Positions 21,013 through 40,040 of a stretch of DNA of 44,956 nt are shown here, one piece after another. Position 1 is the first letter of the stretch. Each line of letters starts with the position of its first letter. This DNA comes from an uncultured Candidatus Saccharibacteria bacterium (GTDB taxonomy: Bacteria; Patescibacteriota; Dojkabacteria; J137). The notes under the pieces are model-generated. The model did no database searches, was not told the DNA's origin, and saw only the letters and a program-made list of their open reading frames with translations. Location: positions 1 through 44,956 of the forward strand of contig CAYTGI010000006.1 of the NCBI GenBank assembly GCA_964437465.1, read 5' to 3'. The translations under genes were made by a program, and so were the position numbers.

Positions 21013-21071
21013 TTCTAAAGATATAAGATTTAAGATAAGAGATCTAAGATTTCTTGGATCTGAGATTTTTA
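21013..21071 (-). repeat. 3' heptamer arm (xxATCTY) of the four-helix-bundle gene
   Basis: Minus strand: aaatctc agatcca ag aaatctt agatctc ttatctt aaatctt atatctt, running up to the ileS start. Confidence 0.8.
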
Positions 21072-21406
21072 ATTATGGTGTAAATCATTTTTTTAAGCTC
21101 ATCAATTTTCATCTCAGTATGTTCCCAGCTTTTATTTTGTATATATTTAAGATCATGAGAAATCTCAATCATAGTTGATACTTCGTTTAGTGAACCCAGT
21201 GCTATATTTAGGAAATTTGCGAATTCTTTATCCGTTTGCCTTACTGCTCCTTCAGCAATATTTGCAAGAATTGAAACGCCAGCTCGTCTAATTTGATTGG
21301 TTAATCCAAATTTTTCTTCTTCGGGAAATGTTGAAGTTATTGTATATATATCTTTAACTAAGTCCTTAGATACTTGCCATATTTTTAACTGCTTGTAGTT
21401 ATGCAT
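21044..21406 (-). CDS. Four-helix-bundle protein (23S rRNA IVS protein-like, TIGR02436-type)
   Basis: YKQLKIWQ, FPEEEKFGLTNQIRRAGVSI.ANIAEG, FLNIALGSLNE. Confidence 0.93.
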   Translation of the reverse strand: MHNYKQLKIWQVSKDLVKDIYTITSTFPEEEKFGLTNQIRRAGVSILANIAEGAVRQTDKEFANFLNIALGSLNEVSTMIEISHDLKYIQNKSWEHTEMKIDELKKMIYTIIKNLRSKKS

Positions 21407-29339: not shown

Positions 29340-29740
29340 CACTTAACCTGTAATTTTCATTACAGCGTGGACTATCTCATCACCATACGATTTCTCATTT
29401 AGGTGTCGGGCGCTCTAGGGTGTAAATCACCTAGTCTCTGAACCTTTTCCATTTTGTTGGAACTTGGCTGCGGATTACCTTAGAATTTCCTTAGGCTTCC
29501 CGCAATTCACCCGATGTTCATTCCTGATTTTCATCAGGAAGCTGCGTGATTCCGCTATGTATTTCCCGATGACAGTTTGAATATACAAGAATGCACTTAT
29601 CTAACTCTGTTTTAACCTTTTGCCAAGATCTTGTTAGCCCTCTTTGTGAAAGCCCAAAATCTTTATTTGCACGATCTTTGTATTTTCTATTGTCAATCTT
29701 TCCCATATATAAAAATGGGGATTAATAATAGCTAGTGAAC
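29340..29740 (-). mobile_element. Group I self-splicing intron (401 nt)
   Basis: P GAAUUGCGGGAAG (29496-29508), Q AAUCCGCAGCCAAG (29463-29479), R GUUCAGAGACUA (29432-29444), S GAGAUAGUCC (29369-29380); terminal G; exon U paired to GCAGC guide (29541-29545); GAAA-capped P2 and P9. Confidence 0.93.
29518..29706 (-). pseudogene. Degenerate HNH homing endonuclease ORF inside the intron P1 loop
   Basis: KDFGLSQRGLTRSWQKVKTELDKCILVYSNCHREIH resembles the C-terminal half of Zn-HNH endonucleases; the central CxxC/His segment is missing. Confidence 0.75.
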
Positions 29741-31012: not shown

Positions 31013-31816
31013 ATGGCAAGATCATTTCTCAAAGGTAAAGACAAGTTTCATAATATTAGAAAACTAAATATTTTTTTAGGTACAATTCACCTAATTCAAT
31101 CTCTAATTATATTCTCGGTTTCTAACAGTACGTTAGTACAATTCAACTCAGATTACTTTGGCTTACTATCAGGACAAGCTGCTAGGGAATTTGGAAATAA
31201 TTCCCAGGTTCTATTCGAGGTCAGATTAAGTGCATTGGTAGCTTTATTTTTGTTTATCGCAGCTTTAACTCATTTTTTGACTACTTCATCAGGGATAAGG
31301 GAATGGTATGATAAGAATCTTAAAAAGGGGATTGGATATGCAAGGTGGTGGGAGTATGCTTTTAGCTCCTCAATAATGATTGTCATTATCGCTTCTATTG
31401 TGGGAATTACTAACTTCTTTACAATATTAGCTATATTCACCTTAAATGCATTGATGAATATTTTTGGCTTGATAATGGAGAAGACTAATTCTGGGAAGAA
31501 GAAAGATTATGATTGGACCAGCTTTATCTATGGGGTTATAGCCGGGATTGTACCTTGGATAATAATATTTAGCTATTATTTTGGAGCACTTTCATTAGCC
31601 ATTCCAACTGCAGCTTTCCCTCTCGGTGGATATGTGATATGGATACTTGTCATTGATTTTGTATGGTTCTCAGCATTTGCTTTAAATATGTATGCTGGTT
31701 TCAGAAAAATAGGACCGTGGAAAAATTATTTGTATACTGAAGTTGTTTACAGTTTCTTGAGTTTATTCTCTAAATCAATTCTTGCTTGGCAAATCTTCTT
31801 AAATCTACTATCTTAG
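31013..31816 (+). CDS. heR: Heliorhodopsin
   Basis: 7 TM; LGTIHLIQ (helix A His), ALTHF (helix B His), RWWEYAFSSSIMIV (counterion Glu), YSFLSLFSKSILAWQ (retinal-binding Lys). Confidence 0.93.
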   Translation: MARSFLKGKDKFHNIRKLNIFLGTIHLIQSLIIFSVSNSTLVQFNSDYFGLLSGQAAREFGNNSQVLFEVRLSALVALFLFIAALTHFLTTSSGIREWYDKNLKKGIGYARWWEYAFSSSIMIVIIASIVGITNFFTILAIFTLNALMNIFGLIMEKTNSGKKKDYDWTSFIYGVIAGIVPWIIIFSYYFGALSLAIPTAAFPLGGYVIWILVIDFVWFSAFALNMYAGFRKIGPWKNYLYTEVVYSFLSLFSKSILAWQIFLNLLS

Positions 31817-34663: not shown

Positions 34664-35338
34664 GTGAAAAAGCTTTTTTTAAGCATTTTCTTCCCCAAAT
34701 TTTGCTTTATTTGTTCAAAAAAAGGTTCCCACTTATGCAATAGATGTACCTTGAGGTACTTAGATTTCCCAATGGTGCAATATTGTCATGTTTGTAGTGG
34801 GGAAGTTAGGTTGGGGTTTGTACATAAAGAATGCTCCTCAAAAACTAATCTTGACGGATTGATTTTCGTATCAGTATATAACAGATTGGTCAGAGATCTT
34901 ATTCATAAAGGTAAGTACAGTAAAGAATTTTCAATCTTTGAGGATTTGGGCATTATTATGAAACAGTTTGTAGAAAAATATTACTCATTTGATAATGTTT
35001 TGATATCATTTGTACCATCACATAGGTCAAAAGAAAGAATACGTGGTTTTAATCAAGCTAAAATCTTAGCCAATGCTTTTTCTAATGGTGCTGAAATAGA
35101 GCTAATTAAGAGAATAAAAAAGACAAAAACTCAGGTTGGAATGACAGAAGAGGAGAGAGCTAATAATTTAAAGGATGCTTTTAAACTTGAGAAATTTCAA
35201 TTAGGCAATGATGTAATTATCATTGATGATGTCTTTACTACTGGTTCAACACTTGAAGAGTGTGCAAAATTAATTAAATCTAAGTACCCTAAAATGAAGG
35301 TATATGGCCTAACATTTGCAAAGACTAGAATAGTATAG
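34664..35338 (+). CDS. comF: ComF family protein (phosphoribosyltransferase fold)
   Basis: FPKFCFIC Zn ribbon, RGFNQA, TQVG...ER..NL..AF, IIIDDVFTTGSTL. Confidence 0.9.
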   Translation: MKKLFLSIFFPKFCFICSKKGSHLCNRCTLRYLDFPMVQYCHVCSGEVRLGFVHKECSSKTNLDGLIFVSVYNRLVRDLIHKGKYSKEFSIFEDLGIIMKQFVEKYYSFDNVLISFVPSHRSKERIRGFNQAKILANAFSNGAEIELIKRIKKTKTQVGMTEEERANNLKDAFKLEKFQLGNDVIIIDDVFTTGSTLEECAKLIKSKYPKMKVYGLTFAKTRIV

Positions 35339-36058
35339 ACTTTATTTTATCAATCTCTTTTGCTGCTCTTATATAGCCATACTCATAAATTTCATCAGCT
35401 TTAGATTGATCTAAGAATACTTTAAACTGTCCTGCCATGTCTTTAAAAATCATATCTTGGGGATCCATTTTTTCATCTTGATCTTGAATGACACTCATCG
35501 AAAGTGTCATAGAGGCTAATATAGATTTGAGAATATTTTTATGATCAGATTCTTCAAACACGGGTTTTTCTGAGTTCGCTTTAAATCCAAAAATAACATC
35601 TGCCCTTTTTCTCTCAGAAAATTCACTCCATAGCCGGAAGAGACATCTCCATCAACATAATAAGTATTATTATATCGAATTGGTTTATATAATTCTGCCA
35701 TGGCCATTGATGAGACTAATGATTCAGTTAAGTCTCCATCTTCTAAGATTACACTTCTTTCTTGCAAAAGATCTGTCTTTTAGGAATTCATTTATGTAAC
35801 CTTTAGTTTTTTCATAGCTTAAAATTGATCTTTCAAATAAAGATTCTATTCCTGCAAAATGTTTGACGCTAAAGCTTTTTGTGAAATCTAGAATTTTGTT
35901 CCTAATGCGTAGGCTGTACCGATCAATGCTCCAGCACTTGAGCCTATGATCATAGAAACTTCAATGTCGTTTTCTTCTAGTGGATCTAGAAAACCAATAT
36001 AAGAAATACATCGAGCTCCACCGCCTCTAAAAGATAGTGCTAATTTTTTCTGATTCAT
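35325..36058 (-). pseudogene. Patatin-like phospholipase pseudogene (at least three frame breaks)
   Basis: GGGAR and GSSAG in the first fragment, YYVDGD in the second; frame-shifted bridging text ILDFTKSFS...FLKDRSF and KGADVIFGF restores a continuous patatin. Confidence 0.85.
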
Positions 36059-36168
36059 GTTATCAGCATTAATAAATGGCCAATTTATGATATAATATAA
36101 AAGTAATAAAAGCACATTAAAAAGAGAATTGGAGTTCCCCGAGCATCTATTAAACCCAATAGGTGCTC

Positions 36169-36609
36169 GGGGGATGCTAAATTCGACAATATATTAAAGG
36201 TTTTAAAGCAAGTCAGGGGATTGATTTGATCCTGCTGCGAACAAAAACAAATCGCCAAATAAATAACAACCCTGTTGTTAATGCTCTAAATAAAGCTGCT
36301 GATGCAGTTGGAAACTTCCTATTCGGAACACCTAACTACAACATCGCTTAATTTTAGGGTGTATGCTGAAAACAAAAAGTAAGCATGCCGTTTATATGAT
36401 TCTTTCCTGATGGATGAATATAAACGCCCAATTAGTCAGGATGCAATTAATATTTTTGATTTATAAATATTAATCAAGACTTTAATAAATCCTAAAAAGC
36501 TCATTTTTGCTTAGTTTTTATTAGCTTTTTAGAAAAATAAACTAAGATAAGCTTGTAACAACTTTATCTCATTTGATTTATTGGACACGGGTATCCGTCA
36601 TCTCCACCA
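36169..36609 (+). ncRNA. ssrA: tmRNA, one-piece, with reduced D-loop and T-arm; predicted tag (A)NNPVVNALNKAADAVGNFLFGTPNYNIA at 36265-36351
   Basis: Acceptor GGGGAUG/CAUCUCC-A-CCA with G3-U70; UUCGAC; helix 2 pairings CAAUA/UAUUG, UAAAGGUU/AACUUUA, GCAAG/CUUGU; pk1 GAUUUG/CAAAUC; tag ends IA-stop. Confidence 0.92.
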
Positions 36610-36610
36610 A

Positions 36611-36641
36611 AAGCCTCTGAAGAAATTCGGAGGTTTTTTTA
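36611..36641 (+). terminator. Intrinsic terminator after ssrA
   Basis: CCUCUGAA-GAAA-UUCGGAGG followed by a U run. Confidence 0.85.
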
Positions 36642-36656
36642 TTTTAATAAATTTCA

Positions 36657-37151
36657 ATGACAGATTTTGAAATTGTTCTCTTTAATCATAACGGTGAGAT
36701 AGCAACTACAGAAGAGCCCATATCGAAAAGGATGGGCATATACAGGGATGAGATTAATCAACCTTCAGAATCATTAAAAGATAAAATACCAATAATCTTC
36801 AAAACTCCTTTTTATACTGTTAAAGGAGTACTAAACACTGAAAATATATTCTGGATATGTTCGAGTGAGGGGAGCCATGAGCGTATAAATCTTGCGGGGA
36901 GTACCATTTATGGAAACAGACCTAAAACATATTCCGCCCAGTTCGAGCTATCAAAACATGTAAATAGAATTGATATTGCGATTTATGCTGATGATTTAGA
37001 AGAAGCATGTAAGGTAGTTAAGTGGCTGCAACATAGCTTTCCAAAGAATCAGAAAGAGGTTGCAACAGTCTCTGTTGGCTCTCCATTCTTAGGGTATGAT
37101 TTAGTCTATGAAGGATCATTATTTAAGTTTTATGCTAAGAAAGAGGCCTAG
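36657..37151 (+). CDS. Hypothetical protein
   Basis: 164-aa ORF filling the gap between the ssrA terminator and the yidC promoter; no motif recognised. Confidence 0.65.
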   Translation: MTDFEIVLFNHNGEIATTEEPISKRMGIYRDEINQPSESLKDKIPIIFKTPFYTVKGVLNTENIFWICSSEGSHERINLAGSTIYGNRPKTYSAQFELSKHVNRIDIAIYADDLEEACKVVKWLQHSFPKNQKEVATVSVGSPFLGYDLVYEGSLFKFYAKKEA

Positions 37152-38843: not shown

Positions 38844-40040
38844 ATGAATCAACAGCAGCTTCAACATCAGTTACAACAACCCCAACAGCCACAACAACAA
38901 GCTGCTCAGACAGGTTTTAATATTGAAGACGAGATTGCTTTGCTTGAAAAGCAAGTTTTAGCTAACCCAATGCCAGAAGATTTAAAGCAAAAGGCTCTAG
39001 GAATGATTTTGAGATTGAAGAAAATGACTGCTGGGGGTAGTTATGGTAAGGAATTTGAGCCGGTTTCTGAGTATATTAGCTGGATTGTAAAGCTTCCCTT
39101 TGGTCAGTATACCAAAGATACTCTAGATTTAGATGCTGCTTATGAAGAATTAAATAGAAACCACTATGGTTTAGAACCTGTAAAACAAAGAATATTAGAG
39201 TATTTGGCTGTTCTGAAGCTTCAGGATCAGAGAAAACAAGAAAATCTAAAAACAGCTCAAAATGCTGCTGATCCATCAGCAGAGATGAAGAAACTACAAG
39301 GAAGCTCTTCTCATGCTCCGATACTTTGTTTTGTAGGCATTCAGGGTGTTGGTAAAACAACTATGGCAAAGTCTATTGCTACAGCATTAGGGAGAGAGTT
39401 TATTAGAGTTTCTCTTGGTGGCTTAGGAAATGTAGTTGAGCTAAGAGGTCGATCTAGAGGAGAGCCCGATGCTGAACCAGGTCAAGTTGTAAAATCTTTA
39501 GTTCGAACACAGGTAATGAATCCACTAATCCTTTTGGATGAAATAGATAAAGTAAATCTTCAAAGTGGATTGAGGGCTGACATTATGGCTGCTTTACTTG
39601 AAATATTAGATCCTGAACAAAACTCTGCATTTATGGATAAATATCTTGATTACCCTCTAAATCTGTCTCAAAGTATTTTTATTACTACTGCTAATAATCT
39701 TGGAGGTATATCCGCAGCACTTTTGGATAGGCTTGAGATTATTAGATTTGGTAGTTATACAGATAAAGATAAAGTGAATATAGCAAAAAGTTATTTATTA
39801 CCAAAGGTAAGAAAGGCGACTGGATTATCAGAAAATGAACTTTCGTTTGATGATAACGTATGGCCATTAGTTATAAGACCTCTTGGTTTTGACGCAGGAG
39901 TCAGGCAGTTAGAGAGAACGCTAACTGATTTAGCTAGAAAAGTAGCCTTACAAATTGTAAAAGGATCCACTAAAGGTGTAAGGATTTCTGAACAAAACTT
40001 TAGAGAGTTTATTCCTGAACAGATCGGGATAATGAGCTAA
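38844..40040 (+). CDS. Lon-type AAA+ ATPase module lacking the N-domain and the protease domain
   Basis: HYGLEPVKQRILEYLAV, ILCFVGIQGVGKT, LLDEIDK, LLEILDPEQN, FITTAN, LLDRLEII, AGVRQLER; ends right after the alpha subdomain; Gln-rich N-terminus. Confidence 0.88.
   Translation: MNQQQLQHQLQQPQQPQQQAAQTGFNIEDEIALLEKQVLANPMPEDLKQKALGMILRLKKMTAGGSYGKEFEPVSEYISWIVKLPFGQYTKDTLDLDAAYEELNRNHYGLEPVKQRILEYLAVLKLQDQRKQENLKTAQNAADPSAEMKKLQGSSSHAPILCFVGIQGVGKTTMAKSIATALGREFIRVSLGGLGNVVELRGRSRGEPDAEPGQVVKSLVRTQVMNPLILLDEIDKVNLQSGLRADIMAALLEILDPEQNSAFMDKYLDYPLNLSQSIFITTANNLGGISAALLDRLEIIRFGSYTDKDKVNIAKSYLLPKVRKATGLSENELSFDDNVWPLVIRPLGFDAGVRQLERTLTDLARKVALQIVKGSTKGVRISEQNFREFIPEQIGIMS

Follow-up and report, generated by a model that had tools for sequence, protein, structure and literature searches.

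A tmRNA gene lacking the D-loop GG and the canonical T-loop at a conserved locus of probable Dojkabacteria

Anatomy of the tmRNA gene

The stretch analyzed here, 44,956 nucleotides (nt) of contig CAYTGI010000006.1 (hereafter the window), carries a gene for transfer-messenger RNA (tmRNA, ssrA) of 440 nt and one-piece form, whose tRNA-like domain departs from the expected plan at two places: the GG of the D-loop, which canonically docks onto the T-loop, is absent, as is the canonical T-arm with its 5-base-pair (bp) stem and 7-nt UUCRANY T-psi-C loop. Few features of tRNAs and tmRNAs are as conserved as the elbow formed by these two loops, which is usually treated as invariant. An initial annotation had identified the gene as a tmRNA, and this is borne out by an end-to-end match to the Rfam family RF00023 (model positions 1-374, 52.8 bits, E 4.5e-18), membership being judged by full-model coverage at or above the gathering score of 47 bits; the start had to be moved from 36169 to 36170. 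The match is single and colinear, which rules out both a two-piece (circularly permuted) tmRNA and a T-loop interrupted by a group I intron; the only such intron of the window lies in a tRNA gene (Table 1).

The 5' end of the gene reads GGGGAUG-CUAAA-UUCGAC and the 3' end GGAC-ACGG-GUAU-CCGU-CAUCUCC-ACCA. Its acceptor strands form seven of seven pairs, G3-U70 included, and are followed by the discriminator A and the 3' CCA; the acceptor G-U pair is invariant in all 17 tRNA-like domains that we compared. The linker that stands in place of the D-loop, whose E. coli counterpart is AUUCUGGA, has no G, and the RF00023 alignment deletes three D-loop positions, the consensus GG among them. At the other end, the T-loop insert in the same alignment is 4 nt as against 9 in the model, and RNAfold predicts the same mini-hairpin whether the tRNA-like domain is folded by itself or as part of the full-length RNA. 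The two losses are thus as first described, namely a D-loop without GG and a 12-nt T-arm, and the remaining parts that had been called intact (acceptor stem, CCA, helix 2, pseudoknot 1 or pk1, tag frame and terminator) could each be located, with seven of the eight pairs of helix 2a formed in the window gene.

The tag frame ends in GCU-UAA at 36346-36351. We infer its resume codon to be the AAC at 36268, within the context AUAAAyGUC/AAC seen in the alignment of relatives, with a start one or two codons upstream being possible. Rfam instead places the resume codon on the GCC at 36254-36256, which would give the short tag GCC-AAA-UAA; this was rejected, as the long frame is conserved as a peptide in relatives that lack that GCC.

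Table 1. Features of the tmRNA gene and other loci of the window mentioned in the text
Feature	Position	Strand	Basis or remark
tmRNA (ssrA) gene	36170-36609	+	RF00023 match
Promoter-like site TTAATA, 16-nt spacer, TG-TATAAT	36069-36096	+	consensus match only
Leader hairpin flush with the mature 5' end	36137-36172	+	RNAfold
Acceptor 5' strand GGGGAUG (G3 of G3-U70)	36170-36176	+	100% paired in 17 sequences
Reduced D-linker CUAAA, 5 nt, 0 G	36177-36181	+	sequence, RF00023 alignment
UUCGAC junction motif and helix 2a 5' strand	36182-36195	+	with A36181 reads AUUCGAC, equivalent of E. coli A15-C21
Pseudoknot pk1: stem 1 CAGG(G)/(U)CCUG, stem 2 GAUUUG/CAAAUC	36214-36253	+	read from sequence
Tag frame, 27 codons NPVVNALNKAADAVGNFLFGTPNYNIA then UAA	36268-36351	+	clade peptide conservation, alignment
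Helix 2a 3' strand and conserved GGAC	36575-36586	+	pairing, both-side changes
Mini T-arm ACGG-GUAU-CCGU, 12 nt: 4 bp and 4-nt loop, no UUCRANY	36587-36598	+	sequence, Rfam, RNAfold
Acceptor 3' strand CAUCUCC (U70), discriminator A, encoded CCA	36599-36609	+	sequence, pairing measured
Intrinsic terminator directly 3' of CCA	36609-36645	+	hairpin plus T-run; also placed at 36609-36638
tRNA gene with group I intron in anticodon loop	29300-29774	-	spliced form tRNA-Asn(GUU)-like
Group I intron core	29348-29600	-	RF00028, 99 bits
Heliorhodopsin gene	31013-31816
Patatin-like phospholipase gene	35325-36059	-
Open reading frame downstream of tmRNA	36657-37151
Lon-lid AAA+ gene	38844-40040
23S rRNA intervening-sequence protein gene	21044-21406	-	PF05635

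Support from independent assemblies

The source is a microbial-mat metagenome contig of roughly 6x depth, a circumstance that would suit a reading of both losses as an assembly or sequencing artefact, that is, as two small deletions in a single contig. Both sites recur in contigs from two other studies. In one of these studies, contig X2 covers 36410-36607 with two substitutions, none of them in the T-arm, which is identical to that of the window, and contig X5 covers 36550-36714 with indels that are confined to the terminator loop and leave the T-arm indel-free. The 5' end is seen in contig X4 from the third study, where ...GGGGATGCT is followed by AAATTCGAC, identical to the window. Together with the recurrence of the same architecture in eight more lineages from other datasets, described below, this renders an artefact practically negligible as an explanation, in agreement with the initial annotation, which had argued against error. 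Related strains show 97-99% identity to the window in their pieces of the tmRNA and 88-95% in those of the neighboring protein genes, so that constraint is stronger on the RNA gene.

A group of syntenic loci with mini T-arms

Because the gene for a ComF-type phosphoribosyltransferase sits 1.3 kb upstream of the tmRNA, its homologs could be used to search for loci without regard to T-arm shape; their contigs were then inspected, and the tmRNA genes were located in the gap between ComF and YidC by Rfam or by a simple end search. The syntenic loci, including L054, which came from a scan of the genome collection, make up nine lineages with the window and stem from at least eight independent datasets. 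They share the recurring gene order YceG-RuvX-(amidase)-ComF-tmRNA-YidC-bL25-Lon-lid AAA+, and their ComF proteins are 37-60% identical to that of the window. All nine have a T-arm of 12-14 nt with an AU-rich loop of 3-5 nt and no UUC motif, as well as a linker of 4-5 nt without a single G (Table 2), so that the loss, for which ssrA genes of the same lineage had been named as the place to look, is shared by every one of them. In a metagenome scan allowing loops of 3-9 nt, 115 of the 120 matches were standard 17-nt T-arms and were reused as the control. This comprises 35 unique standard tRNA-like domains whose acceptor stem and beginning of the T-stem are identical to those of the mini-arm form: here the GG is present in 34/35, with linkers of 6-9 nt, and a UUCRANY loop in 33/35.

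Table 2. T-arms and D-linkers of the nine lineages
Locus	T-arm	D-linker
window	ACGG-GUAU-CCGU	CUAAA
L241	ACGG-GUAU-CCGU	CUAA
L256	ACGG-GUUU-CCGU	UUUA
L242	ACGG-UAUAU-CCGU	CUUA
L243	AGGGG-AAUA-CCCCU	UUAA
L054	ACGGG-GAUA-CCCGU	UUAA
L254	AGGG-UUUA-CCCU	UUUA
L244	AGGGA-UUA-UCCCU	CUUU
L251	AGGGA-UUA-UCCCU	CUUA

These orthologs score 48-85 bits in RF00023. Linkage of ComF and tmRNA recurs at two Daviesbacteria-labelled loci (L071, L092) scoring 100-108 bits, which places the reduced genes in positional orthology with undisputed tmRNA genes; within the mini-arm clade the synteny is complete. The nine lineages are one clade, and the joint loss of T-loop and GG may be a single evolutionary event; the order of the two losses is not readable from these data. 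As to the junction next to the linker, the otherwise nearly invariant UUCGAC reads UUAGAC in L244 and L251, and UUUGAC in L256 and in L250, a locus of a second lineage, so that the residue corresponding to C18 of E. coli can vary here.

Signs of selection

The proposed structure is 93.6% paired over the 17 tRNA-like domains, with 13 of its 21 pairs altered on both sides. Its covariation score of 0.50 was reached by none of 500 shuffles, and sliding the partners by 1-3 columns gave no more than 0.10. Both-side changes affect 8/9 pairs of helix 2a in this set, the second pair of the T-stem flips between C-G and G-C inside the mini-arm clade, and stem 2 of pk1, GAUUUG/CAAAUC in the window, has the compensatory form GACUUU/AAAGUC at the aligned site of L241. 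The tag peptides are conserved in the clade as ...FGNFLxG...PNYxxA*, their C-termini being ...AVGNFLFGTPNYNIA in the window, ...SFGNFLLGKNVAPNYAFNVA in L243, ...ANMFGTPNYSLA in L242 and ...NVLFGQPNFAFAA in L254, and a terminator directly follows the CCA in 8/9 clade members, L242 having none. The elbow-less anatomy is inherited, and it is held by purifying selection.

These observations bear on the alternative of a decaying or non-functional ssrA, whose role would have passed to a second canonical tmRNA or to rescue factors of the ArfA/ArfB type. Such a fate would sit well with the low Rfam scores of the most reduced forms, with the lack of a call by the tmRNA finder ARAGORN, with the occasional loss of tmRNA in reduced genomes (PMC4131195) and with the fact that the sequence at hand is less than a whole genome. 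A decaying gene would not be expected to have every stem kept by compensatory substitutions, nor to preserve its tag peptide, pk1 stem 2 pairing, SmpB junction and (in 8/9) terminator among lineages whose ComF proteins have diverged to 37-60% identity, nor to be more conserved than the adjoining coding sequence at a fixed syntenic position; the promoter is a consensus TATAAT match only, with boxes at similar distances in relatives. We hence judge decay very improbable, and the argument to this effect in the initial annotation stands.

The tags of the window and its orthologs are unusually long, at about 27-33 codons, and share a conserved C-terminal ...FGxPNYxxA motif. A gene for an AAA+ protein with a Lon-type lid is conserved two genes downstream of the tmRNA. 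The combination of long tags and a Lon-lid gene recalls the long Lon-directed tags of Mycoplasma.

Intermediate forms in other lineages

Less reduced forms occur elsewhere in the Candidate Phyla Radiation (CPR). In a second Dojkabacteria-labelled lineage (L247, L250), found through ComF and hence without T-arm bias, the arm is 16 nt long with a UUCAAU loop, and the linker has one or two G. Three Saccharibacteria-labelled loci (L058, L097, L105) and the two Daviesbacteria-labelled ones (L071, L092) have arms of 15-16 nt, loops of 3-6 nt and one G; these five owe their selection to a short-T-arm pattern and do not represent their phyla fairly. The T-loop in these tmRNAs is mostly of the UUCAAY type, with 6 nt, and by their sequences the forms with 15-16 nt arms look like intermediate states. 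As regards the co-evolved reduction first proposed, the joint loss as an inherited and selected state stands, whereas for a stepwise course of co-evolution these intermediates from other CPR lineages are the sole evidence. The pattern used to scan the genome collection for short T-arms was too permissive: among the matches listed, most were chance hits in high-GC genomes and about 10 were real tmRNAs. In the metagenome scan, two matches with 6-nt loops (L204, L212) proved to be chance matches in coding sequence, and viral contigs gave no mini T-arm match. The tmRNA gene of L247 (5964-6459) ends in ACAA rather than ACCA, its CCA being incompletely encoded or mutated.

The loss is confined to the tmRNA

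The one tRNA gene described in the window provides an internal comparison. Once its intron is removed, the product is a canonical 72-nt tRNA-Asn(GUU)-like cloverleaf with a GG-containing D-loop (AACGGUA) and a UUCGAAU T-loop, and it matches the uninterrupted tRNA-Asn of L244. Given this normal elbow, the RNase P, EF-Tu and ribosome of the cell still meet normal elbows, and the loss is specific to the tmRNA. The splice site itself is ambiguous, as joins giving Thr(UGU) and His(GUG) fold too, and the intron carries a remnant frame of an HNH-type endonuclease (...CHREIHSG...).

ARAGORN called neither a tmRNA nor a tRNA anywhere in the window, and it detected none of 13 CPR tmRNAs (L054, L058, L071, L092, L097, L105, L241-L244, L247, L250, L251), all of which Rfam found, some at 1-8 bits above threshold; the control gene from Erysipelotrichaceae (L020) was detected. 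Pipelines that rely on ARAGORN thus under-annotate CPR tmRNA, and reports of CPR genomes without tmRNA may be annotation artefacts.

Leader elements and genomic surroundings

Transcription from the putative promoter would yield a leader of about 65 nt, and relatives have TATAAT boxes at comparable distances. The leader hairpin comprises 12 bp within 36140-36169, or 15 bp if CCC(C) pairs with acceptor G1-G3, with RNAfold energies of -16.2 kcal/mol and, with GGGG included, -27.0 kcal/mol. Its architecture is kept with different sequence in L241, L256, L242, L254, L054, L247 and L250, and in several lineages an upstream CCCC could lengthen it by pairing with acceptor G1-G4. The Daviesbacteria, Saccharibacteria and Erysipelotrichaceae genes have no such hairpin, and their -10 box lies about 8 nt before +1. 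The hairpin may be an element for processing or folding of the pre-tmRNA.

With a GC content of about 33%, the window has the gene content of a bacterial chromosome: LigD, sigma-70, RNase Y, ParAB, IleRS, sortase, heliorhodopsin, YceG and RuvX, besides the ComF-type phosphoribosyltransferase, a short YidC, bL25 and GroES. A phage origin was discarded on the grounds of this chromosomal content and of a blastn search in which the locus matched none of 50,697 phage records. The ComF homologs are named Candidatus Dojkabacteria by NCBI, and the closest locus in the genome collection is labelled uncultured Saccharibacteria; the source is therefore an uncultured, ultra-small bacterium of the CPR (Patescibacteria), probably of the Dojkabacteria (WS6).

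The open reading frame directly downstream of the tmRNA is an orphan that matches only itself. Upstream, the gene for a patatin-like phospholipase has fallen apart into three or more short frames, the N-terminal of which bears GGGxRG and GxSxG; its L241 ortholog is an intact protein of 273 amino acids, and the gene is probably a pseudogene in this strain. A heliorhodopsin gene near the locus is conserved in the clade (positions 1-663 in L243), and the gene for a 23S rRNA intervening-sequence protein stands alone beside IleRS.

Proposed mechanism and its alternatives

At a probability of roughly three in four, we favor the reading that the gene is a functional ssrA ortholog, that the ancestor of the clade lost the lock between D-loop GG and T-loop, and that the tRNA-like domain now works as an acceptor/T minihelix held by SmpB. 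What remains of the domain would be a minihelix of 11-12 bp under an unconserved, AU-rich loop of 3-5 nt acting as a passive cap, completed by the G-less linker of 4-5 nt, the unchanged AUUCGAC/GGAC junction and helix 2. AlaRS would charge it by way of G3-U70, A73 and CCA; AlaRS reportedly charges acceptor minihelices, which are said, after Francklyn and Schimmel, to suffice as substrates. EF-Tu would bind the retained acceptor stem and the first T-stem pairs, and processing is likewise conceivable, as bacterial RNase P cleaves minihelices. SmpB, bound to the retained junction, would alone fix the geometry between minihelix and helix 2 that the elbow lock normally helps to set, after which the ribosome would switch, behind pk1, to the tag frame of 27 codons. 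All steps of this scheme, from charging and factor binding to processing and tagging, are inferred. The missing part is precisely the one that docks the D-loop on the T-loop, and all elements that the partners are known to read have been retained. In E. coli, A15, U17 and A334 form the pocket for Trp122 of SmpB, and G19 packs on SmpB (PMC8363625). The AUUCGAC/GGAC junction keeps the nucleotides matching these contacts (A15/U17/G19/A334), so that a compensating change in SmpB, as supposed by the initial annotation, is not required by the data.

Alternatively, the same functional tmRNA might have had its elbow lock actively replaced, which is the compensation envisaged by the initial annotation. 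The mini T-arm could be capped by an altered SmpB or by some other protein, or linker and T-loop could have gained a new AU loop-loop contact. Both loops are AU-rich in 9/9 members and 2-bp contacts are always possible; moreover, E. coli data indicate that the D/T contact matters to SmpB function, and SmpB is altered in other reduced systems, having lost its central loop in Carsonella, Hodgkinia and hemoplasmas (PMC4131195). The loops are nevertheless unconserved and show no consistent complementarity (GUAU, GUUU, UAUAU, AAUA, GAUA, UUUA and UUA as against CUAAA, CUAA, UUUA, CUUA, UUAA and CUUU), and, on the part of the RNA, the known interface with SmpB has not changed. The SmpB of the clade itself was not retrieved: no SmpB gene lies in the window or adjoins ssrA in the clade loci, and a search seeded with the Daviesbacteria SmpB returned only Daviesbacteria-type proteins. 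We accordingly consider active replacement of the lock possible but unlikely.

Several points weigh against the functional minihelix held by SmpB. The elbow of E. coli tmRNA was reported in a 2002 study to be necessary for SmpB binding and function, which conflicts with a selected form that has no elbow, and it is this conflict that makes the case interesting. The most reduced forms reach only 48-55 bits in Rfam. A second canonical ssrA may lie elsewhere in the genome, of which the sequence spans only 45 kb. A search for RNA-labelled runs turned up X2 and X3 alone. Since coding genes are covered in them too, at low depth, both have the character of DNA, as does every run found, and none is RNA-level.

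Normal elbows also contact uL5, the L1 stalk and the specificity domain of RNase P. In the A site the T-arm normally contacts uL16, H38 and H89 (PMC8363625). We would extend the functional minihelix reading only tentatively, with our doubts outweighing our confidence, to the statement that the whole clade carries out trans-translation with an elbow-less tmRNA and that the lock, the T-loop modifications and the elbow contacts are dispensable or have been replaced by lineage-specific features. If this is true, the candidates for replacement would be SmpB, the CPR ribosome and pre-tmRNA processing, for instance through the leader hairpin flush with +1. A natural, selected, elbow-less clade would offer a ready-made minimal tRNA-like domain, which would allow a direct test of where the elbow is needed, be it by RNase P, the C-Ala domain of AlaRS, EF-Tu, SmpB, the ribosomal A-, P- and E-site contacts or TrmA/TruB, and it would add tmRNA to the list of unusual CPR translation parts.

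Comparison with known systems

On its sequence the window gene is a variant form of tmRNA and not a standard member, because the 17-nt T-arm and the GG are both missing while its descent and other features are those of ssrA. We found no description of a T-loop-less tmRNA in the literature searched. The 2025 tmRNA database paper distinguishes three gene forms (standard, intron, permuted), treats T-loops only as intron sites, and counts, for 6,765 Patescibacteria genomes, 5,252 instances of the standard form; sequences of the mini-T-arm type have therefore probably been deposited there already without comment.

In common with standard tmRNA (RF00023, E. coli SsrA), the window gene has an acceptor stem of 7 bp that contains G3-U70, then A73 and CCA, the AUUCGAC/GGAC junction and its sheared G-A pairs, helix 2, a pk1 immediately ahead of the resume codon, a tag frame closed by Ala-stop and a terminator. 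It differs in its T-arm of 12 nt (4 bp and GUAU) as against 17 nt (5 bp and UUCRANY), in its D-linker of 5 nt without G as against about 7-8 nt with GG, in its tag of 27 codons as against about 10, and in the structured leader hairpin that abuts +1. Erosion of the tmRNA-SmpB system in reduced genomes has been described in a 2014 survey for Carsonella, Hodgkinia, hemoplasmas and the mitochondria of jakobids and oomycetes (PMC4131195), the losses there being those of the SmpB central loop or tail, of the mRNA-like domain or of the whole gene, with T-loop, D-loop and elbow unmentioned. The other CPR tmRNAs (L247, L250, L058, L097, L105, L071, L092) resemble the window gene in their long tags, AT-richness, shortened linker and invisibility to ARAGORN; unlike it, they keep a T-arm of 15-16 nt and at least one G in the linker.

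Beyond tmRNA, two kinds of molecule come close. In artificial minihelices, G3-U70 recognition and CCA-guided cleavage by RNase P are possible without an elbow, at reduced efficiency; those substrates are artificial, whereas the window gene encodes a natural full-length tmRNA. The mitochondrial tRNAs of nematodes and mites that have no T-arm or no D-arm are natural cases in which the D-loop/T-loop elbow has been lost and the tRNA is still charged, delivered and moved through the ribosome, in organelles with dedicated EF-Tu variants and altered mitoribosomes. Unlike in these, the tRNA of the window keeps a normal elbow, and the tmRNA alone is reduced.
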